A stretch of DNA of 64,000 nt, taken from positions 868,057-932,056 of the forward strand of contig JAGTJU010000001.1 of assembly GCA_022184915.1 (NCBI GenBank). Direction: 5' to 3'. A program made the translations under genes and the position numbers. This document shows positions 5,997-52,683 of the stretch, one piece after another (position 1 is the first letter of the stretch; each line of letters begins with the position of its first letter). The DNA is from Myxococcales bacterium. GTDB lineage: Bacteria; Myxococcota_A; Polyangia; Fen-1088. The notes under the pieces were generated by a model. The model was given only the letters and a program-made list of their open reading frames with translations. It did not search any database and was not told the DNA's origin.

Positions 5997-7184
5997 TCAC
6001 CTTCTTTTCACGAAGTGAAGCGCCGCGGCCGCGACGATCCAGAAAACTTCTTTCGAACGTTTTGTGAACGCGAGCGCCGTCGCCGCGCCCGGGGCGCCAG
6101 GAACACCCAGAAGCTCGAGGAGCACGAACGAGCCCATCTCCTGGGCGCCGAGTCCGGCAGGGAGAAAGAAGGCCGCCGCGCGAATCGTCGAAACGAGAGA
6201 CTCCAGGAGAAGGGCGCTCGAGAAGGAGAGGGACACACCCAAAAGCCGCAGGATGACGTAGGTCTCGAGAGCCTCCATCAGCCACTGGCCGAGCGTGAAC
6301 ACCAGGCCGAACCCACAGGTGGTGTTGCCGCCCACGCCGAAGAAGCGAGAGAAGCTTCCCGCCGTGGCGTCGAACATGTGGGCCTTGTCACTGAGCCAAC
6401 GCCGAAAGCGCGGTACCGGGACCCGCGTGAGCGCACCGTGCACGAGGCGCAGGGCCAACCCGCCCCTCAGGGTGTGCAGCAGCCACATGCCCGCCAGCAG
6501 GAGGCCTGCGCCGAGCAGAGGCACGGAGCGCCACACCCAATGCGCGGGCCCGGTCAAGGTGGCAGCCGTTTCGCTCCAGGTGGTGTAGGCCAAGGCGAAC
6601 GCGAGCAGGATGTAAAGGCCCTCGGCCTGCACGATGAAGGCCTTCGTCAACGCCACGCTGGCCGTGCCTTCGGCGTAGGGAACGCCCAGGCGATGGCGCA
6701 GCCAGTAGGGCTTGCAGGTTTCTGCCAGCACAGGGCCTCCCGGCACGGCGACGACGACGGCCTCGGCCGCCACACGCAAGCGCAGCAGAGGAAAAAAGCG
6801 CGTGACGTAGCCGAGCTGGAACAAGGTGACTTGCCACGCCGCCGTGGCGCACACCATCGAACCCGCGAAGGGCAAAAGCACGAGAGGCCAGGCGTACCCG
6901 ATGTTGCCAAGCCGGGTGAGTGCGGTGGACCAGTCGCCGCGCGCCGCCAGGATCACGACGGCCGCTACGGCCACGCCCGCCATCAGCCAGCGCCAGGCCC
7001 GAATACGCGTGGCGGGAGCCGCAGGAGCGAGGGCGTCGGCTTCTAGCGATGCGGAATCATCCGCGCGGGAGGCGAGCGCGGTCTCGGGGCCGAGAGGCTG
7101 AAGGGTTGAAAGGGTCACGCGGTCAATGAGTAGGGAAGAGAGGAAGCCACGGAGCCCCATGCCGGCTGCCGCTGCGCCAGCCAA
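5997..7184 (-). CDS. Polytopic membrane protein, lysyl-phosphatidylglycerol-synthase-TM / flippase-like (UPF0104) family
   Basis: Multiple hydrophobic helices. This family is common in glycolipid and polysaccharide loci. The N-terminal about 60 aa of the ORF are low-complexity, so the true start may be internal. Confidence 0.45.
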   Translation of the reverse strand: MAGAAAAGMGLRGFLSSLLIDRVTLSTLQPLGPETALASRADDSASLEADALAPAAPATRIRAWRWLMAGVAVAAVVILAARGDWSTALTRLGNIGYAWPLVLLPFAGSMVCATAAWQVTLFQLGYVTRFFPLLRLRVAAEAVVVAVPGGPVLAETCKPYWLRHRLGVPYAEGTASVALTKAFIVQAEGLYILLAFALAYTTWSETAATLTGPAHWVWRSVPLLGAGLLLAGMWLLHTLRGGLALRLVHGALTRVPVPRFRRWLSDKAHMFDATAGSFSRFFGVGGNTTCGFGLVFTLGQWLMEALETYVILRLLGVSLSFSSALLLESLVSTIRAAAFFLPAGLGAQEMGSFVLLELLGVPGAPGAATALAFTKRSKEVFWIVAAAALHFVKRR

Positions 7185-7264
7185 GGTGTCACGGGCATGC
7201 GCTCGCTCCGGTGGCGCCCGTGCAACATGGGCGTGACGGCCTCGCTTCGTGCGCTTGCCAACGC

Positions 7265-7296
7265 GTCACAAACGGGCCGAAATTGTGACGGTCACA
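7265..7296. promoter_or_regulatory. Putative operator: inverted repeat GTCACAA-N11-TTGTGAC overlapping the 13-bp palindrome TGTGACGGTCACA, in a divergent promoter region
   Basis: Seen directly. The same 7-mer recurs at 8550-8556 and 12661-12667 in other intergenic regions of the cluster. Confidence 0.4.
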
Positions 7297-7328
7297 TCGT
7301 CGTGGCCTGGTAGGTGAGTGCGTGCCTC

Positions 7329-8516
7329 ATGCGCTCCAACACTTCCCTCACGGTCGTCGACGTCTCGAGTTTCTTCTCGACGTCGTGTGGTGGCATCAAG
7401 CGGTATTATCAGGAGAAGGCCCGGCATCTGCCGGCCCTGGGTGTGACGTGCCACTTCGTGGTGCCGGGTGAGTCCGATCGCGACGAGCCCTTCTTTGGAG
7501 GTTGGCTGCATCACGTGGCGGGACCGTTGCAGCCAGGCAACGCGGCTTACCGCCGCTTTAGCTTCAGCTCGCGGCTGCCCCAGCTTTTGCGCTCACTTGC
7601 GCCCGATGTCGTGGAGGTGGGCAGCCACTATCTTCTGCCGACGATGGTGCGCCGGGCGTTTGCGGCCTCGCCCCGCAGGCCGCGGCTGGTGGGGTTCTTT
7701 CACAGCCATCCCGAGCAGATCGTGCAAAACGTGACGGCACACTTGCCAAGGCGTCTCGGCACCGGGTGGCTCGGGCGTCGTGCGTGGTCGTTCTTTGCGC
7801 GCCAACACAAGTCTTACGCGTCGACCTTCGTGGCGTCGCGGCACATCGAAGCGCAGCTCGTGTCGCGACGGGTGCCCGGGGTGCTGCGGGTGGGGCTGGG
7901 CGTCGACGTACAAACCTTCCGCCCGCGCCCAAAAGCCGAAGGGAGCCCCAATGTGATCTACGCGGGGCGCTTCACGATCGACAAGGAGCTGCCGTTGCTG
8001 CTCGCGGCCTTCGATCAGGTCCACACGCGCACGGGGGCGGGCTTGACCCTCGTGGGAGATGGGCCGTTGAAGGGGCGGGTTCGCCAGCACGCGGCGTCGC
8101 GGCCGTGGATGCGGGTGCTCGACTATGTCGCCTCCGTGGACGACATGGCGCGCTTGTTGAGCGAGAGCACCGCCGTGGTCGTGCCCAGCCAGACGGAGAC
8201 CTTCTCCTTTACCACCGCGGAGGCTTTGGCCAGTGGCGTGCCCGTGGTGGGGGCCGATCGCGGGGCGGTGCGCGAGCTCGTGGAAGACAGCGGGGGGGGC
8301 GTGCTCTTCAAGGCGGGGGAGGCGCGCGGCTTGGCGCACGCCCTCGAGGGGCTGCTGGCAGCGCCCGCCGGGGCGCGGACCGCGATGGGGGCCGCAGGGC
8401 GTGCCCACATCGTCAAGGACTTCACGTGGCCGGCGGTGTGTGAGCGCCTGCGAGCGGCCTATGACGATGTGATTCACCCAGGTTCGAGCCCTGCCGGGGC
8501 CTCTGCTGCCCCCTGA
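7329..8516 (+). CDS. Glycosyltransferase family 4 (GT-B, retaining)
   Basis: C-terminal GT4 signature (AEALASGVPVVGADRGAVRELVEDSGGGVLF; E-x7-E). Start taken at ATG 7329; an alternative GTG is at 7314. Confidence 0.75.
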   Translation: MRSNTSLTVVDVSSFFSTSCGGIKRYYQEKARHLPALGVTCHFVVPGESDRDEPFFGGWLHHVAGPLQPGNAAYRRFSFSSRLPQLLRSLAPDVVEVGSHYLLPTMVRRAFAASPRRPRLVGFFHSHPEQIVQNVTAHLPRRLGTGWLGRRAWSFFARQHKSYASTFVASRHIEAQLVSRRVPGVLRVGLGVDVQTFRPRPKAEGSPNVIYAGRFTIDKELPLLLAAFDQVHTRTGAGLTLVGDGPLKGRVRQHAASRPWMRVLDYVASVDDMARLLSESTAVVVPSQTETFSFTTAEALASGVPVVGADRGAVRELVEDSGGGVLFKAGEARGLAHALEGLLAAPAGARTAMGAAGRAHIVKDFTWPAVCERLRAAYDDVIHPGSSPAGASAAP

Positions 8517-44716: not shown

Positions 44717-45634
44717 ATGACCAGCTTACACGGTGGCTTGACCGTGAGTCCATCGGGATTGGCACGTGTGCACGCCTCGTCACGCGTAATGCTCGACGTC
44801 GTCGAGCAGGTGAGGCGTCTCGCTCGTAGCCAGGTCAACGTACTGTTCCTGGGTGAGACCGGCACGGGCAAAGCCCTCTTGGCGCGCGCGCTGCATGAGG
44901 AAAGTCACCGCGCCCACGCGCCTTTCGTGCGCGTCGACTGTCGAGACGTGCACGCCGACGCGCGGGACCTCTTCGACGACGACGCACCGGGCGCCCCGGC
45001 GCGCGCGGGGGGCGGAACGCTCTTTTTGGACGAGGTCGCTGAGCTTCCGGGCCCGCTTCAACAGAGCCTCTTGCGCTGGCTGGACGGGCGAAGCTCGTTC
45101 GGCGACATGCCTGTAGGGGCGGGGGAGGTCCGCGTCGTTTCCGCGAGCTGCCGCGCGATCGAAGCGGTCGCTTCGTCTGCCGCCTTTCGGCAGGATCTCT
45201 ATTTTCGTCTCGCCGTGGCCCTGGTTCACGTGCCTCCCCTGCGCGATCGCGTGGAAGATCTGCCGCGGCTCGCGAATGATCTGCTCGCCGAGTTGGGGCG
45301 CCCCGAGCTCTTGCTGAGCCCGGAGACTCTCGTGTTGCTGAGTGCGCACCTTTGGCCTGGGAACGTCAGGGAACTGAAGAACGCCTTGGCAGCGGCCCTC
45401 GCCTTGGCGGACGGGGGCACCCTCGAGCCCAGGCACTTCAGATCGCTTGGCCACGAAGGCGCGCCCTCGGTGCTCGAGCGCCTCCCGCTGGGAGGCCAGA
45501 GATTGGAACATCTCGAACGCGCGGCCATCAAGCAAACGCTCACGCAGACCCGGGGGAACAAAGTGCAGGCAGCGCGTACGCTGGGGATCGCGCCCTCGAC
45601 GCTCTACGAGAAGCTCAAGCGCTACGGCCTCTGA
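44717..45634 (+). CDS. Sigma-54-dependent transcriptional activator (bacterial enhancer-binding protein), AAA+ plus Fis-type HTH, no N-terminal sensor domain
   Basis: Walker A GETGTGK. GAFTGA-region equivalent. ESELFGH-like, arginine finger. C-terminal HTH (RGNKVQAARTLGIAPSTLYEKLKRYGL). Confidence 0.75.
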   Translation: MTSLHGGLTVSPSGLARVHASSRVMLDVVEQVRRLARSQVNVLFLGETGTGKALLARALHEESHRAHAPFVRVDCRDVHADARDLFDDDAPGAPARAGGGTLFLDEVAELPGPLQQSLLRWLDGRSSFGDMPVGAGEVRVVSASCRAIEAVASSAAFRQDLYFRLAVALVHVPPLRDRVEDLPRLANDLLAELGRPELLLSPETLVLLSAHLWPGNVRELKNALAAALALADGGTLEPRHFRSLGHEGAPSVLERLPLGGQRLEHLERAAIKQTLTQTRGNKVQAARTLGIAPSTLYEKLKRYGL

Positions 45635-45640
45635 GCTCCG

Positions 45641-46960
45641 TCACGCAAAGCCCCCTCGTCCCTGAAACGAAAACGCCCCCGGCACAGGCTTCGTGGCCAT
45701 CTGCGGAAGAAAGCCCTCGAGCTTCTCGAGCACGCGCAGCTGGCGTCCCGCGTGCTGATCGGCCCTCAGGTGTACGCCAAGACCGTAGCGTACGAAGAGC
45801 TCATCGATGAGCAGCGCACGCATCTGCCCGCGCAGGTGTTGCGAGTAAAGGGCCGACAAACTCTCCTCGGGGCTTGCGATCTTACCCATGCGGTAGCGCG
45901 TGGCGGGGGCAAGCACCAAGCGGGCGCGCGCGAGCGCTTCGGTCCAGGGGGCCTCGTCCTGAGACAGCCGCCACAGCGGGTCGGCGTCGCTCGGCGCGCG
46001 CTCTCGTGACGCTTCGTCTGCGTTCGGGGGCTCAATCACGTGCTCGACCGGACCAATGCCACTCATGAGGTGCAGCGCCTGTGCGGCAGCGGGCGCGAGG
46101 CCCTCGATGGTCAAGGCCCGCAGCAACGTGGGCACGAGGGCGCCATCTCCCAGCAGGCCCGCCGCGAAGGTGGCGAAGGCGTCGCCGGTCTCGATGTGTT
46201 TGGCGAGGAGGGATGCGGCGCGGGGACCTCCGAGGAACGCCAACACCACGGGCGCCCATGCTTGGTTCAGCGCTTGCGCCAGCAGCCAGTGCGCCAGCTG
46301 CGGGTCTTCTGTCCGGCACAAGGCCAGTGCCGCGGCGCGGGCCACCGGGGCTTCGCTTGCCCCCAGCGCTTCGATGAGGGCATCGCGCGCGGGCGCCTCA
46401 CCGATTTGCCCCAAAGCCCAGAGCCACGTGGCAGGGGTCGGCACGCCCTGGCGAAGGCCCGCCAACAAGGCCGGCCCCACGTCCCAGCGTTGGTAACCGG
46501 CGGCATAGGCCAACGCCTCGGCCTCCGGCGCCGCGCCTCCGGCAACGAGCGTCGCCTGCACGTCGCCGAGGTCACCTCCCCAGGGCTCGTGGGCCAGGGC
46601 CGTTCTCAGCGCTTCGGCAGGGGAGGGCTCCCGCGCCGCCAGGCGGTTGGGATCCACGTTCAGCGCCAGCGCCTCGTTCGCCGTGACCCTCAAGGCCGCC
46701 ATGTTCCCCGCATGCGCGAGCGTTCGCGTGGCCGCGTACACGGCTCCTCCGCCGTCGAGCGGGACCGCACGACAGAAGTCTGCTGCGTCTTTGCCGCCGA
46801 AAAACAGCAGATCCAGATGGGCGTCGAGACGGTCATCGAGGGATCGCACCTGAGACAGGCCGAGCTCGGGAGGATCCAGGTCCTGGCAGCGCCGCACGAA
46901 GAGCGTGCCCGCCTCCTCTAGGCTCTCCTCGAACAGCTCTTGGTTGAAGCGAATGGCCAT
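45641..46960 (-). CDS. TIGR02270-like hypothetical protein (paralog of 47531..48847)
   Basis: Its N-terminal E-E-S-x-x-E-A-x-x-L pattern and helical-repeat composition resemble the downstream TIGR02270-like protein. The family is described as being of unknown function and T6SS/VgrG-associated in Proteobacteria. Confidence 0.4.
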   Translation of the reverse strand: MAIRFNQELFEESLEEAGTLFVRRCQDLDPPELGLSQVRSLDDRLDAHLDLLFFGGKDAADFCRAVPLDGGGAVYAATRTLAHAGNMAALRVTANEALALNVDPNRLAAREPSPAEALRTALAHEPWGGDLGDVQATLVAGGAAPEAEALAYAAGYQRWDVGPALLAGLRQGVPTPATWLWALGQIGEAPARDALIEALGASEAPVARAAALALCRTEDPQLAHWLLAQALNQAWAPVVLAFLGGPRAASLLAKHIETGDAFATFAAGLLGDGALVPTLLRALTIEGLAPAAAQALHLMSGIGPVEHVIEPPNADEASRERAPSDADPLWRLSQDEAPWTEALARARLVLAPATRYRMGKIASPEESLSALYSQHLRGQMRALLIDELFVRYGLGVHLRADQHAGRQLRVLEKLEGFLPQMATKPVPGAFSFQGRGGFA

Positions 46961-47073
46961 GCTGCCAGCGCCAGCCTATCGCAGTCCCGTCGCTTTTGGG
47001 CAGGCGGCCTATGGACTTGGCGCCCGCACCCGGCGAAACTCGCGGGATGGAGAGCCCGAGGTCTAAGGAGCGT

Positions 47074-47529
47074 ATGTCACCGCTGGCCCTGGGGCAGGCG
47101 CGGACGGCGGCGCTGGTGGCGGCGAACGAGGACGAGGCGGGGCGGGTCTGGGCCTGGGTGGATGTGGGGCAGGGCCCCGAGCGGGCCGCGCTGCAGGTGC
47201 CGCTGTCGGCCGCGCGCCTCGAGCGCATCGCCGCCGAGCAACGCCCCGTCATCGTGTTCAGGGCCCCGGGAGGTCTCGAGGTGGTGGCCGTGGTGGGCCT
47301 GGCGTTGGCGCCGCCGCTGGCGCCGCTGGCGCCCGCGGGTGCGCCCATCGAGGCCGACGTCGACGGACAGCGACTGCGTCTTCATGCCGAGCGCGAGATC
47401 GTGCTTTCTTGCGGCAAAGCCTCGATCACCTTGCGCGCCAATGGCCGTGTGATCATTCAAGGCACGCAGATCGAGTCCTACGCCGAAGGCACGAACCGGA
47501 TCAAGGGTGGGCAAGTTCGCATCAACTGA
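47074..47529 (+). CDS. Small hypothetical protein with VgrG/gp5 C-terminal-like beta-helix repeats
   Basis: AGGAG RBS. The C-terminus (GKASITLRANGRVIIQGTQIESYAEGTNRIKGGQVRIN) resembles VgrG tail repeats. The ORF track extends it to a TTG at 46996. Confidence 0.4.
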   Translation: MSPLALGQARTAALVAANEDEAGRVWAWVDVGQGPERAALQVPLSAARLERIAAEQRPVIVFRAPGGLEVVAVVGLALAPPLAPLAPAGAPIEADVDGQRLRLHAEREIVLSCGKASITLRANGRVIIQGTQIESYAEGTNRIKGGQVRIN

Positions 47530-47530
47530 C

Positions 47531-48847
47531 ATGCCCATGCGCTCACGGCTCCCTGTTTTGTGGCCCCTCGTCGAAGAGAGCTTCGACGAGGCCGAGTTTT
47601 TGTGGCGTTCCTGGGAGGAGAGCCTCGACACCCACGCGCGCCACCTCGGCCAGGTCTGGTTTTGGACCGACGACCGCCTGCAGGGGGCCCTCGAAGGTGT
47701 GCGGCTCGGCGGGCGCCGGGCGCTCGACGAACTCTTGTTGCCCGCGCTGGCACGCCCCGAATCCCCTTTTCGGGTGCGGGCCACGGTGCACGTGCTGGCT
47801 TCCCACGCGACACCGGCGTGGGGCGCCCTGGGGGAAAGTCTGCGGGGGACAGCGTCCCTCGGCTTCGACATCGAGCGCGGCCTGCAAACGCTCACCGAGC
47901 CGCGCCAGGTGAGCGCGCTCGAAGCGTGGCTCGCGCATCAGGGTGAGGCCTCGCGGGCTCTCCGGGTGTCCTTGCGTGTGTTTCGCAAGCAAGCTTCACC
48001 GCCCGACGAGGTGAGCGCGCTTGCCGTGTCCCACGTGCCGGCGCACCGGCGGGTGGCCATGGCGGCAGCCCAGCACCTTCCGCCGGGGCTGGCCAAGCCG
48101 CTCCTGGTTCGCGGCCTCGACGACATCGAGGGCGAGGTGGCCAACGCCGCGGTCGGCGCGGGGCTCGTGCACGGCTTGCCTGCGGCGTGGGCACGCTGCT
48201 GCGAACGGGCCGCGGCACAATCATCGGCGCTCTTCGTGTTCCTGGCGGCCTGCCTCGGGGGGCCCCGCGAACGGCGTCTCGTCGAAGCCTCGCTGGGGCT
48301 TGCGCGCACACGGCCCTTTGCCCTTTCGGCCCTGGGGTTTTTGGGCACACGCAGGGCGGCCGATCTGGCCCTCGAGCTGATGAACGAAGACGCGCAGGCG
48401 CGCCTGGCGGCCGAGGCCTTTTGTGCCATCACGGGGCTCGACCTGGCCGCAGAAAACGCCGCCTTGCCGGAGCCTTTGCCGCCCGCGGGGCCCGTGCCTT
48501 TCGAGCTCGACGATCTGGATGCAGACCTCGTGCCCAAACCGGATGACCTGCTTCCCGCCCCCGACGTGGCGCGGGTTTCTGCGTGGTGGGCGGCCCACCG
48601 CAACCGCTTCGATGAGCACACCCGCTACATCGGAGGGCGGCCCCTGTCGCCCACCGCCTTGTGGGACGCGCTCGCGCGGGGGCCCATGCGTCGCCGGCAC
48701 GTGCTGGCCTTCGAGCTGGCCGTCCGCACCGCAGGGGCTTGTGACCTTCAGACCCGCGCCTTCACTTCGTTCCAGCGCCAGCAGCTCCGGCAGTTCACCG
48801 CAGAGCTCGCTGACATACCCTTTGCGATGAACGCCTTCGCCTCCTGA
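47531..48847 (+). CDS. TIGR02270-like hypothetical protein
   Basis: ATG 2 nt after the upstream TGA. N-terminal LVEESFDEAEFLWRSWEESL. HEAT-like repeats. Confidence 0.45.
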   Translation: MPMRSRLPVLWPLVEESFDEAEFLWRSWEESLDTHARHLGQVWFWTDDRLQGALEGVRLGGRRALDELLLPALARPESPFRVRATVHVLASHATPAWGALGESLRGTASLGFDIERGLQTLTEPRQVSALEAWLAHQGEASRALRVSLRVFRKQASPPDEVSALAVSHVPAHRRVAMAAAQHLPPGLAKPLLVRGLDDIEGEVANAAVGAGLVHGLPAAWARCCERAAAQSSALFVFLAACLGGPRERRLVEASLGLARTRPFALSALGFLGTRRAADLALELMNEDAQARLAAEAFCAITGLDLAAENAALPEPLPPAGPVPFELDDLDADLVPKPDDLLPAPDVARVSAWWAAHRNRFDEHTRYIGGRPLSPTALWDALARGPMRRRHVLAFELAVRTAGACDLQTRAFTSFQRQQLRQFTAELADIPFAMNAFAS

Positions 48848-48857
48848 GCCTGGCCCC

Positions 48858-49880
48858 ATGTTGCAGCTCGAAAACGCGTCCGGCCTGCCGGCTTCCCTGG
48901 CCGTGTTTCCCGATCCCCACGGCATCGATACTCTCTACACCGTCGTCAAAGCTACGTTCGCCTTGCGACCGCGGCTGGCCTTGGCCGATGAGCAGCTGCC
49001 CGTGTCGGCGGTCGACGCGTGGCGGGGCGAGCCCGGCAAGAGCAGCCTCACCGAGGTCAGCGAATTTCACCTCGGCAAACCGGGCACCGACGTGCTCCTC
49101 ACCGGGCACGCCGTGGCCCCGCAGGGCCGGCCCGCCCCGCAGAGCGCCGTGCGCCTGGTGGTTGCCAATCGGCAGAAAACGGCGGCCATTTTTGGCAAGC
49201 GCGTGTGGCGGCGCGGGGGCACGCTCTGCCCGCCCGAGCCCTTCGAGAAGGTCCCGCTCGTGTGGGAACACGCTTACGGTGGTTGCCACGAGGTGACGCC
49301 CGGTGGGGCCCTGCTGGGCGAAGACGCCAATCCCCTGGGGGTGGGCTTCGTGGGCCGCCGCTCCGCCGAGAGCTTCATCAGCACACCGGCCCCGCAGATC
49401 GAAGATCCTGCGGCCCTCATGCAAACACTCGGGGACAGGCCCCCCCCTGTGGGCTTTGGGCCGATGCCCGCCGCCTGGGCCGCGCGTCGGCGCTTTGCTG
49501 GCACCTACGATGCGGCCTGGCAGCGCACGCGGGCGCCCTACCTGCCCGCCGATTTCGATCCTCGCTTTTTTCACGTGGCCCCCGCGCCCTTCGCCTTCGC
49601 GCACCCGCTGCAAGGCGGTGAACCGGTCTCTGTCATTGGCGTGTCTTACGACGGACCCTATGCCTTTGCGGTGCCACGTCTCGTGGTGGGGGTCCACGTC
49701 GTGCTGGCGCGCCGGCAGCAGATCGTGCAAGCGATGCTCGAGACCCTGTGGATCCACGCCGACACGGCCCGCGTGAGCTTGTCCTACCGGGCCGCGCTCG
49801 CGTGCGACAAAGAGGTCCTCGCGGTGAAGAAGGTGCGAATCGAGGTGGCTGGCCTCGAGGAAGTAGGGCTGGCCGCGTGA
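48858..49880 (+). CDS. DUF2169-family protein (T6SS effector adaptor/chaperone family)
   Basis: N-terminal MLQLENASGLPASLAVFPDPHGIDTLYTVVKATFAL matches the DUF2169 N-terminal signature. 340 aa is typical. Confidence 0.65.
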   Translation: MLQLENASGLPASLAVFPDPHGIDTLYTVVKATFALRPRLALADEQLPVSAVDAWRGEPGKSSLTEVSEFHLGKPGTDVLLTGHAVAPQGRPAPQSAVRLVVANRQKTAAIFGKRVWRRGGTLCPPEPFEKVPLVWEHAYGGCHEVTPGGALLGEDANPLGVGFVGRRSAESFISTPAPQIEDPAALMQTLGDRPPPVGFGPMPAAWAARRRFAGTYDAAWQRTRAPYLPADFDPRFFHVAPAPFAFAHPLQGGEPVSVIGVSYDGPYAFAVPRLVVGVHVVLARRQQIVQAMLETLWIHADTARVSLSYRAALACDKEVLAVKKVRIEVAGLEEVGLAA

Positions 49881-50938
49881 ATCAACCCGTGTACCTCTTG
49901 GCAAGCGGAGCTCTTTGCGCCCTCGGCATCGGCGTGGCGCAGATTTGGGCGGCGGCGCGTGCGGGGCTCTCGCGCACCGCCGCGTCGCCCCTACGAGGCG
50001 GCTCCGGTGAGCCCCTCACTCTGGCGCTGGTGCCCGAAGACGCGCTGGCACCGCTTGACCCCGCGCTCGAAGCACAGCATCCCGCGCAGGTCGAAGGTCG
50101 GCTGCTGCGCTTGATGGCGTCGCCTTTGGCCGAAATCGCGAGCGGGCCGCTCGCTTCCGCACCCCTGCCTCTTTATCTCGGCATGCCCGAGCCCGAGCCG
50201 GGGTTCGGTCGAGCCTTCGATGACAGGCGGTTTTTGTCGCAGGTGGCGCAGCTTGCCGCCGTGCCGATCGACCCCGCGCGCAGCCGTGTGTTTCGGCAGG
50301 GACGGGCGGCGGGCTTCTTTGCGTTGGCTGCGGCTGAGGAGGCGCTCGCGCGCGGAGACTTTACGCACGTTCTCGTGGGCGGGGTGGATAGCTACCTCGA
50401 TCCCGTTCGCCTCGCGCGTCTGGACGCCGAAGGGCGGCTCTTGGGTCCCCACACGATGGACGGCTTCATCCCCGGTGAAGGGGCGGCCGTGCTGCTTCTC
50501 GCGAAGGTGCCCCCTGCTGCGGGGGTGGCGGCGTGTAGGCTCTCCGGTGTGGCCACGGCGTTTGATGCCGGGCATCGCTACGCCGAAGCGCCTGCCCTGG
50601 GTGAAGGCCTTGCGGCCGCCCTTGAGAGCCTGCGCGCGGCGGGGCGTGGCCCCCAAGGTCCCGCAGAGGTCGTCTTCGCCGGGCTCACCGGCGAGAGCTT
50701 CGGCGCGAAGACCTGGGGCGTGGCGCAGCTACGCCACCGCGACCTCATCTCACCCGAAGCCCTGCTCGAGCACCCCGCGGAGGGGTTCGGCGACGTGGGA
50801 GCGGCGATGGGCCCGCTTTTGCTAGCGCTCGCCGATGCGTCCCTGGTGCTCGGGCACCGGGACGGCCCCGCGCTCGTATGGGCCAATGCGGATCGGGGTC
50901 CCTGCGGCTGTGCGTTCATCGAAACCGCTACACCCTGA
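49877..50938 (+). CDS. Beta-ketoacyl-synthase-like (thiolase-fold) protein lacking the canonical catalytic Cys
   Basis: GTG start overlapping the DUF2169 stop (GTGA). KAS-like N-terminus (VYLLASGALCALGIG..IWAAARAG) and FIPGEGAAVLLL. No TACSS-type Cys motif at the expected position. Confidence 0.55.
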   Translation: MNQPVYLLASGALCALGIGVAQIWAAARAGLSRTAASPLRGGSGEPLTLALVPEDALAPLDPALEAQHPAQVEGRLLRLMASPLAEIASGPLASAPLPLYLGMPEPEPGFGRAFDDRRFLSQVAQLAAVPIDPARSRVFRQGRAAGFFALAAAEEALARGDFTHVLVGGVDSYLDPVRLARLDAEGRLLGPHTMDGFIPGEGAAVLLLAKVPPAAGVAACRLSGVATAFDAGHRYAEAPALGEGLAAALESLRAAGRGPQGPAEVVFAGLTGESFGAKTWGVAQLRHRDLISPEALLEHPAEGFGDVGAAMGPLLLALADASLVLGHRDGPALVWANADRGPCGCAFIETATP

Positions 50939-50956: not shown

Positions 50957-51341
50957 ATGGCACAGACCACCTTCGCGAACATGCGTGGCATCGTCCACAA
51001 GGGCTCGGGGGGCACGAGCCCCGTGTTTCCTGACGTCTGCAAAACGCCTGCCCCTCCGGCCGGGCCCCTGCCCATTCCTTACCCCAACATGGGGCAAGCC
51101 AGTCACACGAGCGGGGGGCCCACGAAGGTGAAGGTCGACGGGCAGATGCCCATGACCAAGGGTGCAAAGTACCAGATGAGCGCGGGGGGACGAGGCCGGC
51201 GCGGTGGGGGGCGTGATGAGCGGAAAGATCAAGGGCGCGTGTGAGTTCATGATGTACTCCTTCGACGTGAAGTTCGAAGGCAAAAACGTGTGCCGCATGG
51301 GCGATCCGCTCTTCCACAACGAAAAGAATGCGATGGGTTGA
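50957..51341 (+). pseudogene. PAAR-like DUF4150 (Tox-PAAR-like) gene disrupted by a frameshift in a G6 homopolymer (51184-51189)
   Basis: GAGGAG RBS. The N-terminal part (VHKGSGGTSPVFPDVCKTPAPPAGPLPIPYPN...) is in the ORF-track frame to 51244. The C-terminal part (GVMSGKIKGACEFMMYSFDVKFEGKNVCRMGDPLFHNEKNAMG*) is in the -1 frame, ending at the TGA at 51339-51341. Confidence 0.6.
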
Positions 51342-51346
51342 CTGAC

Positions 51347-52123
51347 ATGCAGCTCGGAGAAGCCATAGCCGTCATGGTGGCCGCGCCCGACGAGGGCGCG
51401 TGCTGGGCCTGCGAAGCGCCCCCACCCGAAGATCCCAAACCCAACGATCTCGCCGAAGATCCCGATTCGGCAAGCGCCGCCGAGAACAATCTGCACAACG
51501 ACTCGAGCAAGCTCGGCCGCAACCTTGGCCGTAGGCCTTCGTGGAACATCACGGTGCCAGACCGAGACGCGAGCGGTGGCACCATGACCCGCTCGGTGAC
51601 CGTGGTTCCGGGCGCCCATCACTTGATTCCGGGGAACGCCTCGCTCAAAAAAACGCCCTCGCTGCTCGCGCTCATGGAGAAACAAAAGGGCAAGGTGCGC
51701 GAGGACATCGGGTACGACGTCAACGGCGCCAAAAACGGCATTTGGCTACCAGCGAACTATGGGGTGAGGTCCGATTCGGAGTTCGGCAAGGCCTGGAGCG
51801 CTTACGGCTTTCAGAACGACTACGCCCTGGCGGCCATGAAGCGCGCCGGCGCGCAGTTTCACGACGCACACCCGGACTATAGCCGCAACGTGCAGCGCAC
51901 CCTCCGGGCCCTCGCTGACAAGATCAAGCTGCACGCCCCCGAAAAGTGTGGCATCTGCGAAAAAGAGATCTCCGACAAGGCGCGCCCTCCCTACGGCCTC
52001 GTGGGGCGCCTCGATGGGGTGTCACGCCAACACCGGGCCTTCTTGGCCGGTCCCGTGCGCAAGTGGCCCATCGCCAGTGGGTACTACACGTCCGCGCGTT
52101 CGGCGCTCATGAAGGGGAGTTAA
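51347..52123 (+). CDS. AHH-family nuclease toxin (HNH/EndoVII superfamily)
   Basis: GAHHLIP ... NGIWLP ... H motif arrangement characteristic of Tox-AHH. ATG is 5 nt after the PAAR-like stop. Confidence 0.65.
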   Translation: MQLGEAIAVMVAAPDEGACWACEAPPPEDPKPNDLAEDPDSASAAENNLHNDSSKLGRNLGRRPSWNITVPDRDASGGTMTRSVTVVPGAHHLIPGNASLKKTPSLLALMEKQKGKVREDIGYDVNGAKNGIWLPANYGVRSDSEFGKAWSAYGFQNDYALAAMKRAGAQFHDAHPDYSRNVQRTLRALADKIKLHAPEKCGICEKEISDKARPPYGLVGRLDGVSRQHRAFLAGPVRKWPIASGYYTSARSALMKGS

Positions 52124-52683
52124 TGAGTTACTTCGTTCTGCAAGCGCGCACCCCCGTGGACGACGAGGGCGGCTACTACGACATCGGCGACGGCATCGAG
52201 CTCGACGGCGTGCGCAGCTGGGCCCTGGGGGTGCCGATCACCGCTTCTCTCGCCACGCCCCTCGTGGTTCCGCTCACCCCCATCGAGGGCTTCACGGGTG
52301 ATGTGCCCGCGTTGGCCGATGGGTATCTGTGTCTCATGAGCCATCCCCTCGTCGAGGCGCTGCGTGCAGCCGGTGTGGATAACCTTCAGACCTTCGATGC
52401 GGTCTTGGTCGACGAGACCCACGGGCGCACGTTTGCCTATCAGGCCGTCAACATCATCGGCATGGTCGCCGCGGCCGATCTGCAAGCGTCCCAGTGGGAG
52501 AACCTGGATGGCCCCGCGAAGATGGACACTCACTTCGACGAGCTGAAGATCGACCCCGATCGCGCGCTGGGCTTGCTTCTCTTTCGCCTGGCGGAGAACA
52601 CCGGGATCATCGTCGTTCACGAGCGCATCAAAAAGGCGCTCGAGGCGGCCGGGATCCCCACGTTGGTGTTTTTGCCGGCCTGA
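52123..52683 (+). CDS. Putative cognate immunity protein (possibly Imm11/DUF1629-like)
   Basis: TAATG overlap with the toxin gene. GGGGAG RBS. 186-aa acidic protein starting MSYFVLQ. The position is typical for immunity genes. Confidence 0.5.
   Translation: MSYFVLQARTPVDDEGGYYDIGDGIELDGVRSWALGVPITASLATPLVVPLTPIEGFTGDVPALADGYLCLMSHPLVEALRAAGVDNLQTFDAVLVDETHGRTFAYQAVNIIGMVAAADLQASQWENLDGPAKMDTHFDELKIDPDRALGLLLFRLAENTGIIVVHERIKKALEAAGIPTLVFLPA

Follow-up and report, generated by a model that had tools for sequence, protein, structure and literature searches.

The protein of 353 amino acids encoded at positions 49877–50938 of the Myxococcales DNA studied here (the window, meaning the whole stretch of 64,000 nucleotides that was analysed) is best described as a ketosynthase-fold pseudoenzyme of the TvpD family with an accessory role in a T6SS effector cassette of the class II Tvp/DUF2169, synteny type A, kind. 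We put the probability of this description at roughly three in four. The sequence-only reading from which we started had proposed a β-ketoacyl-ACP synthase (KAS)-like protein that apparently lacks the catalytic cysteine and may form, together with DUF2169, a conserved adaptor module for PAAR-toxin loading, and the profile alignments, structure predictions and synteny counts described below bear it out. The gene is part of the following cassette:

45641–46960, − strand: TIGR02270-family (HEAT-like repeat) paralogue, divergently oriented, 439 aa (NCBIfam TIGR02270, E = 2.7e-16; weak Pfam HEAT_2)
46996–47529, + strand: short TvpC-like protein (DUF6484 type: OB-fold plus short VgrG-like β-prism), assigned by homology to a DUF6484-bearing protein
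47507–48847, + strand: TIGR02270-family HEAT-like repeat protein, 446 aa (NCBIfam TIGR02270, E = 1.3e-60, 205.6 bits; model cutoff 206.8)
48858–49880, + strand: DUF2169 protein, 340 aa, of the TvpA type that chaperones DUF4150/PIPY PAAR-like domains (PF09937, E = 9.3e-87, profile 2–294/294)
49877–50938, + strand: TvpD/PRK06147-family pseudo-ketosynthase, 353 aa, Arg143 in place of the nucleophilic Cys
50957–51341, + strand: DUF4150/Tox-PAAR-like (“PIPY”) tip protein, 127 aa after frame correction (PF13665)
51347–52123, + strand: AHH-family (HNH/EndoVII) nuclease toxin, a separate gene, 258 aa (PF14412 AHH, E = 1.8e-7; also a 258-aa gene in the independent assembly L083)
52123–52683, + strand: probable Imm11-like immunity protein of 186 aa (Pfam Imm11, E = 1.8e-4, slightly under the cutoff; gene call in L083)

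The tvpD open reading frame begins with a GTG codon at 49877 that overlaps the TGA stop codon of the DUF2169 gene (GTGA), the two genes being translationally coupled, and it ends with a stop codon at 50938. Its product is identical over the full length (100%) to the NCBI entry [quoted passage not shown]. Residues 3–350 match positions 4–343 of the 349-position NCBIfam model NF004798 (PRK06147) with an E-value of 3.8e-47 and 161 bits, whereas the curated cutoff is 342. This threshold is likewise missed by three relatives encoded at other loci (170–260 bits), so that the model appears narrow; the 260-bit score belongs to a Pseudomonas homologue that resides in a locus of the order VgrG – DUF6484 – DUF2169 – TvpD – PAAR-like – ... 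– TIGR02270. The window protein, which shares about 30–33% identity with Pseudomonas-type proteins, is most probably a divergent member of the already described PRK06147/TvpD family. A Pfam match to both KAS domains was looked for in window TvpD and is absent: PF00109 matches as a fragment only (residues 144–210 on profile positions 175–248/252, E = 1e-6), and PF02801 gives no match even at E ≤ 1. A tblastn search against plasmids returned a single match, from Gemmatirosa, which is unannotated.

The AlphaFold2 model of window TvpD (pLDDT 94.9, pTM 0.94) displays a complete two-lobed ketosynthase/thiolase fold, in line with the fold assignment made from the sequence. Foldseek finds its best matches in the ishigamide chain-length factor 6kxf_B, OXSM and FabF (E = 6e-18 to 1e-16, TMq 0.72–0.79), and the best match of the family profile in the PDB is 7f28 chain B. 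With FabB/FabF and OXSM, window TvpD shares the five-layer thiolase fold in both lobes (TMq ~0.75–0.79), the N-terminal β1-loop-α1 element, the DGFxPGEGA and DxGH motifs and a GAA helix cap; the segment PGEGAAVLLL, quoted in part (GEGAAVLLL) as a KAS feature in the sequence-only reading, is indeed present at residues 199–208. Window TvpD nevertheless differs from these enzymes in having only 15–20% identity to them, in being shorter by about 60 residues, and in its genomic context, which is that of a T6SS and not of lipid synthesis. Missing from it are two KAS-specific insertions (approximately FabF residues 108–140 and 361–392), which in KAS enzymes shape the acyl pocket and its cap. The hydrophobic N-terminus (LLASGALC) was considered as a lipoprotein or signal peptide and rejected, as it forms strand β1 of the fold (pLDDT > 90) and does not satisfy the lipobox rule.

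Four independent alignments place Arg143, which lies in the stretch GRAAGFFALAAAEEAL (residues 142–157), on the position of the KAS nucleophile. (i) In a phmmer alignment to human OXSM, G146 is paired with a Gly at which the printed alignment starts, the Cys itself not being displayed; in the KAS T-A-C-x-x-G motif, this Gly follows the Cys by three residues. (ii) The family profile has “plGRaa” opposite “STACSS” of PDB 7f28_B. (iii) Global hhalign against E. coli FabF and FabB pairs R143 with C164, and (iv) MAFFT likewise pairs it with C164 of FabF. The AlphaFold models agree with this assignment: R143 is residue 2 of helix 142–158, which comes after strand 137–139, and C164 of FabF (Met1 numbering, at the N-terminus of helix Nα3) is residue 2 of helix 163–179.

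In local mode, hhalign of the family and FabF/FabB covered the N-terminal 38 residues only, the C-terminal lobe alone gave no alignment to FabF/FabB in either local or global mode, and a profile search seeded with FabF and FabB returned only near-identical E. coli FabB/FabF and hence no deep KAS profile. As the global hhalign alignment is unreliable past residue ~277, the second His and the Lys were mapped by MAFFT together with the DSSP assignments of the two AlphaFold2 models. The latter match in pattern (helix at 336–339, gap, strand at 341, gap, helix at 343 in FabF; helix at 301–304, gap, strand at 306, gap, helix at 308 in window TvpD) and thereby place K336 of FabF on A301 and H341 on D306. 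The first catalytic His, FabF H304, corresponds to T271 in MAFFT (Asn in 181 of 193 family members), an assignment uncertain by one residue, the secondary-structure register pointing possibly to L270. The GFGG oxyanion loop of KAS is replaced by ADRG, and there is no His in residues 270–274 or 300–326 of window TvpD. Judged by these alignments and models, every catalytic KAS residue of window TvpD (the Cys, both His, the Lys and the Gly-rich oxyanion loop) is predicted to be lost; no conserved Cys/His/His triad could be placed, and the non-catalytic reading of the protein, originally built on the cysteine, extends to the His/His/Lys set.

The replacement of the nucleophile is a property of the family. 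At position 143, the 193 relatives carry Arg in 178 cases, His in 9, Gly in 2, Gln in 2, and Thr and Ser once each; 146 representatives of clusters formed at 50% identity carry Arg in 136 cases, His in 4, Lys, Gly and Gln in 2 each and Ala in 1. Cys occurs in neither set, and a Pseudomonas homologue displays a G-R motif at this location. No column of the family is an invariant Cys, C14 and C345 being mostly Thr and Ala in the representatives, and neither these residues nor S338, an Ala in the window protein, qualifies as an alternative nucleophile, as none is invariant. On the other hand, R143, N271-G272-E273, H299-P300 and G305-D306 are conserved at 92–99% in the 193 relatives, which come from many phyla, and similarly in the 146 cluster representatives. 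Window TvpD departs from this conserved cluster at two positions (T271 for Asn and A338 for Ser). We propose that R143, N/T271, E273, H299 and D306 most likely form a polar network that plugs the old active-site tunnel and joins the two lobes.

The gene order is conserved as well. In TvpD loci from 80 genomes, a DUF2169 gene is found directly upstream of tvpD in 55 of 75 loci and a PAAR-like gene directly downstream in 63 of 77, which substantiates the suggested conserved pair; the order DUF2169 – tvpD – PAAR-like is maintained across many phyla. The window has the same arrangement, with tvpD between the DUF2169 gene (48858–49880) and the Tox-PAAR-like gene (from 50957), and it contains the companions typical of synteny type A/class II cassettes, namely a DUF6484-type TvpC and a HEAT/ARM-like protein. 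Homologues of the TIGR02270 protein and of the short TvpC-like protein are present in 67 and 56 of 79 TvpD loci, respectively. The TIGR02270 gene at 47507–48847 corresponds to the “HEAT repeat”/ARM-like gene known from vgrG1b-type clusters, and its divergent paralogue at 45641–46960 is matched by the iterated TIGR02270 HMM with an E-value of 2.4e-43. The TvpC-like protein, whose start codon is uncertain (TTG at 46996, or ATG at 47047 or 47074), has a weak Pfam DUF2345 match in its C-terminal 50 amino acids and no match to Pfam DUF6484 itself; it is 43% identical over nearly its full length (E = 1e-31) to a Povalibacter protein that does match DUF6484 (E = 8.6e-14).

The PAAR-like gene of the window is frameshifted as written and gives an ORF of 95 amino acids, in which PF13665 covers profile positions 4–60/108. 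Removal of one G from the G6 run at 51184–51189 yields a 127-residue protein that matches positions 4–108/108 (E = 2.1e-39). The independent assembly L083 has G5 at this site and an intact 127-aa PAAR-like ORF, and it shows no other difference in the remaining ~7.1 kb of the 7.8-kb locus compared. The PAAR-like protein is a stand-alone protein in 56 of 76 related loci, in 37 of which the AHH toxin is a separate gene, and Imm11-like immunity homologues follow AHH in 40 loci; in the window, the start of the Imm11-like gene overlaps the AHH stop codon. Readthrough of the PAAR-like stop codon into AHH was considered and discarded: the two genes are in the same frame in about 8 of 28 loci (hand count), close to the one third expected by chance, and their frames differ in the window. 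σ54 promoters were sought around the cassette with the pattern TGGCAC-N5-TTGC, at most 2 mismatches being allowed; the 88 sites obtained are at the level expected by chance (81.5), and the 46960–47075 intergenic region contains none.

The 64-kb window contains no T6SS core gene and no VgrG-like ORF, the latter as judged with an HMM by which VgrG-size ORFs are recovered from 43 related loci. As orphan cassettes are known from the literature, the lack of a linked vgrG does not disqualify the protein from TvpD membership.

An adaptor or co-chaperone interpretation of this family is already in the literature. PRK06147 was put forward by Liu et al. (2020) as a fourth class of T6SS adaptors, 74% of whose members adjoin DUF2169 and whose associated toxins are mainly GHH2 and AHH (PMC7714669). 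Sachar et al. (2025) defined “synteny type A” as DUF6484 + DUF2169 + thiolase-like + ARM/HEAT-like + DUF4150 (PMC11883445). Monlezun et al. (2026) named PA0098 TvpD, a predicted PAAR-domain co-chaperone of class II Tvp systems, which together with PA0097 is predicted by AlphaFold to surround the Tse7 PAAR domain with a concave groove (PMC13373197). In P. mirabilis, T6SS killing is lost in a PMI0754::kan mutant, the mutants being polar (PMC3764213). The chaperone role of TvpD is a proposal, predicted from synteny, polar mutants and AlphaFold models. We found no residue-level account of the loss of the triad in TvpD/PRK06147 in the published literature.

TvpD/PA0098 (the “thiolase-like” gene of the P. 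aeruginosa vgrG1b cluster) and PMI0754 belong to the NCBIfam model NF004798, which the window protein matches over its full length at a score under the curated cutoff, and PA0098-type loci and the window have in common the DUF6484-type TvpC, DUF2169, the DUF4150 PAAR-like domain, immunity and HEAT/TIGR02270 components. The window differs from the PA0098 system in that (i) a stand-alone PAAR-like protein and a separate AHH toxin take the place of a Tse7-type fusion, (ii) one TIGR02270 gene separates tvpC from tvpA and is accompanied by another, divergent copy, and (iii) vgrG is unlinked. A second published T6SS-co-opted ketosynthase fold without catalytic residues, which we liken to TvpD by description, is TsmK (AsaB) of Acinetobacter, termed a “pseudo-ketoacyl synthase” (PMC10564176). 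Unlike TvpD, TsmK functions in membrane-complex assembly (TssM/TssL), is a core-cluster gene and is largely restricted to Acinetobacter; it also keeps one of the three catalytic residues (PMC10564176).

Combining these observations with published models and genetics, we propose that TvpD and the DUF2169 protein (TvpA) would cradle the DUF4150 PAAR-like cone, initially on a trimer of TvpC (DUF6484 type), a short mimic of VgrG, and later on the genuine VgrG. The spike tip stabilised in this way would allow the AHH nuclease to be fired, and the Imm11-like protein would shield the producer.

Could the protein instead be a working 3-oxoacyl-ACP synthase or acyltransferase, for example one whose acylation target is an effector or immunity protein, a role suggested for PMI0754 by Alteri et al. 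(2013; PMC3764213)? The KAS fold is present, the DGFxPGEGA and DxGH motifs are kept and many homologues carry the name “3-oxoacyl-ACP synthase” in JGI annotations, but none of the Cys, the two His, the Lys and the GFGG loop is retained, the family has no conserved Cys, PF02801 is unmatched, and the hydrophobic N-terminus is strand β1 and no signal peptide. Furthermore, the cassette contains no ACP, acyltransferase or other FAS/PKS gene. With these catalytic elements lost and the two KAS insertions absent, the protein is therefore expected to perform neither acyl-thioester chemistry nor Claisen condensation, and the presence of Arg at the Cys position across phyla argues against the older acylation idea. 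An active enzyme is thus very improbable and this reading is close to refuted already. Even harder to credit is a partner role akin to that of chain-length factors, in a heterodimer with an active ketosynthase encoded elsewhere. The top Foldseek match, 6kxf_B, is a chain-length factor, 7f28 chain B is the best PDB match of the profile, and CLF/KSβ proteins (ishigamide Iga12, actinorhodin CLF) resemble window TvpD in being non-condensing, in lacking the Cys and in their length of about 360 amino acids. CLFs, however, have Gln at the Cys position and are obligate heterodimers with an adjacent KSα, whereas TvpD has Arg, neither the cassette nor any of the 80 related loci shows a ketosynthase gene, and its partners are T6SS genes throughout.

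The two other alternatives concern what the non-catalytic protein does. The old active site may have been rebuilt into a new one that binds a ligand or a segment of the PAAR-like protein or effector, or that carries out non-KAS catalysis; its tasks could include recognition of the cone or of the cargo toxin, or the gating of spike loading by a small molecule. The 92–99% conservation of the replacement residues in both sets of relatives is what would be expected of such a site, near-invariance of five polar residues being equally a mark of a new binding or catalytic centre, and some other thiolase-fold pseudoenzymes, such as KSQ and CLF, do keep residual chemistry. The same residues fit a buried salt-bridge plug equally well, though, and the window protein deviates at T271 and A338, so we regard a rebuilt site as unlikely. 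Were it to exist, TvpD would be no passive scaffold but a factor that confers specificity or acts as a checkpoint. We are a little more sceptical of the idea that TvpD mainly brings a cargo toxin that has a gene of its own, AHH in this case, to the spike as an effector adaptor and not as a PAAR chaperone. The frequency of stand-alone PAAR-like proteins and separate AHH genes speaks for it, as do the location of PRK06147 genes nearer to effectors than DUF2169 genes (PMC7714669) and the less conserved 5′ end of the rhizobial thiolase-like gene, for which a possible role in effector specificity was suggested (PMC11872809). The family, however, also serves PAAR-toxin fusions and varied toxins (GHH2, AHH, unknown), and published models put TvpD on the PAAR domain. 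The cargo-adaptor and PAAR-chaperone roles are not mutually exclusive.

The absence of the catalytic cysteine from the TvpD-family pseudoenzyme of the window is a correct but ordinary observation that matters little outside annotation. There, it means that the name “3-oxoacyl-ACP synthase” is functionally wrong for the TvpD family, for which “T6SS accessory protein TvpD (pseudo-ketosynthase)” is the fitting label. R143, E273, H299 and D306 are concrete targets for point mutants. Finally, with the window, class II Tvp cassettes come to include Myxococcota-type loci that have a stand-alone PAAR-like tip protein and encode the nuclease in a separate cargo gene.

The open reading frame at 49877–50938 (+) encodes 353 amino acids; its GTG start codon and the TGA of the gene before it overlap (GCC GCG TGA / GTG AAT CAA). 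As homologues align at 45–53% identity with E-values down to 1e-103, the gene is real, and the protein is 100% identical to the NCBI entry 'hypothetical protein KA712_03765' of a Myxococcales MAG. NCBIfam NF004798 / PRK06147 ('3-oxoacyl-ACP synthase') covers its full length (E 3.8e-47) with a score of 161 bits, short of the curated 342-bit cutoff, and the Pfam search detects only a PF00109 fragment (residues 144–210, E 1e-6) and no PF02801. An antisense frame within the gene (49991–50656 (−), 221 amino acids, third-position GC 0.82, above the noise expectation) was accepted by a simple gene filter based on GC3, which rejected the real gene. This frame is probably a compositional artefact of the 67% GC DNA, and the case shows that such filters are misleading in this genome.

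The AlphaFold2 model of the protein, built with 36 homologues as input, is very confident (pLDDT 94.9, pTM 0.94) and contains a beta-alpha-beta-alpha-beta-alpha-beta-beta pattern twice. In the PDB, Foldseek matches it to about 1,000 ketosynthase chains, with the ishigamide chain-length factor at the top (6kxf_B, E 6e-18, TMq 0.72) and the human mitochondrial ketosynthase OXSM and FabF of several bacteria among the other best (TMq 0.75–0.79, 15–20% identity). The protein is therefore predicted to have a complete thiolase/ketosynthase fold, as the sequence-only reading had proposed, and is about 60 residues shorter than FabF.

That reading had also suggested that the catalytic cysteine of β-ketoacyl-ACP synthases (KAS) is missing, and four alignments were used to set the nucleophile position. 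The phmmer alignment to OXSM begins at a Gly paired with G146 and leaves the Cys itself outside; this Gly lies three residues past the Cys in the KAS T-A-C-x-x-G motif. The family HMM places 'plGRaa' opposite 'STACSS' of 7f28_B, and global hhalign with E. coli FabF and FabB and MAFFT with FabF agree in pairing R143 with C164. In the AlphaFold2 models, each of these two residues comes second in its helix: R143 in helix 142–158, which follows strand 137–139, and FabF C164 in helix 163–179. Sequence profiles failed to align the C-terminal lobe with KAS; MAFFT aligned it to FabF almost without gaps.

Catalytic elements of FabF, their counterparts in the window protein and the family residues
C164 (Met1 numbering); R143; Arg in 92–93%
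H304-G305-T306; T271-G272-E273; N271 in 181/193
K336; A301; mostly Ala
G340-H341; G305-D306; Asp in 94–97%

For the first FabF His, the counterpart could be either of two adjacent residues, L270 or T271. The pairing of K336 with A301 and of H341 with D306 is supported by the local DSSP patterns of the two models, which agree: a short helix (336–339 in FabF, 301–304 here), coil, residue 341 (a bridge) or 306, coil, and a long helix from 343 or 308. There is no His in residues 270–274 or 300–326. The Gly-rich loop between the last two FabF strands that carries the gatekeeper Phe (G400-F-G-G403) corresponds, by strand register only, to A338-D-R-G341, where the family has S-D-R-E. The sequence-only reading is thus correct on the loss, which goes further than first stated: all catalytic elements are replaced across the family, and KAS chemistry would be impossible for this protein.

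Among 193 relatives (119 from databases, 73 from the 80 genome loci, and the window protein), position 143 is Arg in 178, His in nine, Gly in two, Gln in two, and Thr and Ser once each, but never Cys. An exhaustive HMM search over 1.84 billion cluster representatives returned 1,293 proteins at E ≤ 1e-30, and the best 146 newly returned representatives gave R136/H4/K2/G2/Q2/A1. The family has no conserved Cys column: in the representatives, Thr predominates at the position of C14 and Ala at that of C345. The replacement residues are nearly invariant (G142-R143, G272-E273 in 192/193, R286 in 192/193, H299-P300, G305-D306, G308-A309-A310), and two ancestral KAS motifs persist, DGFxPGEGA and DxGH. 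The window protein itself departs from the family at two near-invariant sites, T271 and A338 (Ser in 179/193), both of which adjoin the former active site.

The neighbouring genes were identified with Pfam and NCBIfam.

44717–45634 (+), sigma-54 activator with AAA+ and HTH_8 domains only, lacking an N-terminal sensor or receiver
45641–46960 (−), TIGR02270 (HEAT-like) paralogue
46996–47529 (+), short ORF with a VgrG-like C-terminal beta-prism (TvpC-like)
47507–48847 (+), TIGR02270 protein (E 1.3e-60)
48858–49880 (+), DUF2169 protein (E 9e-87)
49877–50938 (+), KAS-like gene (TvpD)
50957–51341 (+), Tox-PAAR-like / DUF4150 protein
51347–52123 (+), AHH nuclease
52123–52683 (+), Imm11-like protein

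The product of 46996–47529 shares 43% identity (E 1e-31) with a Povalibacter protein bearing Pfam DUF6484, and the two TIGR02270 paralogues flank its gene. The sigma-54 activator adjoins the cassette; a consensus search of intergenic 46960–47075 found no −24/−12 promoter, with matches at chance level. Genes for secreted proteins (DUF4215 repeats, matrixin, Kazal inhibitors, a TonB-dependent receptor) lie upstream, and housekeeping genes (isocitrate/isopropylmalate dehydrogenase, MutS2) follow. Neither vgrG nor any T6SS core gene occurs in the 64-kb window, which makes the cassette an orphan. A G6 run at 51184–51189 shifts the frame of the PAAR-like gene and cuts it to 95 amino acids. In a second, independent assembly of this sequence (L083, Logan SRR17687159), the run is G5 and the 127-residue frame is intact, with 0 mismatches over the remaining ~7.1 kb compared. 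The sixth G probably reflects either an error in assembling the homopolymer or variation within the population.

Scanning one genome per species yielded 80 TvpD loci in Myxococcota, Gammaproteobacteria, Desulfobacterota, Acidobacteriota, Gemmatimonadota, Planctomycetota, Nitrospirota, Alpha-/Betaproteobacteria and others, whose neighbours were called with HMMs iterated from the window proteins. The suspected association with DUF2169 recurs: in 55 of the 75 loci with enough upstream DNA, its gene lies on the TvpD strand and ends no more than 150 nt from the TvpD start, and a PAAR-like ORF directly follows TvpD in 63/77. A short TvpC-like ORF is present in 56 loci, a VgrG-size ORF in 43 and AHH in 38; the most frequent order is VgrG - TvpC - TIGR02270 - DUF2169 - TvpD - PAAR-like - AHH - immunity. 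TIGR02270, listed in the literature simply as a 'HEAT/ARM-like' gene, occurs in 67/79 loci, nearly as constantly as DUF2169 and TvpD. Its place differs from locus to locus: between tvpC and tvpA (the DUF2169 gene), downstream of PAAR-like, or on the other strand. The PAAR-like protein stands alone in 56/76 TvpD-linked loci, 37 of which have a separate downstream AHH gene (e.g. 7042–8241 of locus L012; loci L002–L061).

The proposed adaptor or chaperone role of this protein is supported but not new, since it is in the literature already. PRK06147 was described as a probable fourth T6SS adaptor class, with 74% of members adjoining DUF2169, PAAR encoded by the next gene downstream in 52%, linked toxins that are mostly Tox-GHH2 and AHH, and occasional TIGR02270 fusion (Liu et al. 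2020, PMC7714669). The DUF2169 'synteny type A' comprises DUF6484, DUF2169, 'thiolase-like', ARM-like repeat and DUF4150 genes, and effector delivery requires DUF2169 (Sachar et al. 2025, PMC11883445). [quoted passage not shown] An insertion in PMI0754 abolished killing by P. mirabilis, and the authors speculated that the PMI0754 product acylates either an effector or an immunity protein (Alteri et al. 2013, PMC3764213); Acinetobacter has a separate T6SS 'pseudo-ketoacyl synthase', TsmK (PMC10564176). No paper in the literature that could be searched names the catalytic residues missing from PRK06147/TvpD proteins, and the words thiolase, ketoacyl and catalytic are absent from PMC13373197. The TvpD gene described here belongs to a known family, of which it is a new and divergent member, and its cassette is of a known type.

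TvpD and DUF2169 are conserved partners whose genes are translationally coupled, and TvpD is encoded upstream of the PAAR-like tip gene. Following the literature, TvpD and DUF2169 would shield the DUF4150 cone during assembly on the TvpC trimer, and the cone would then be passed to VgrG. We suggest that the invariant Arg/Glu/Asp/His set may form a polar plug in place of the acyl tunnel. The literature describes a Tse7-type PAAR–toxin fusion as the typical class II Tvp arrangement, whereas PAAR-like and AHH are separate in this clade. Because the toxin is a separate gene here, AHH would also have to be recruited by the cassette as cargo, possibly via TvpD or the TIGR02270 protein.
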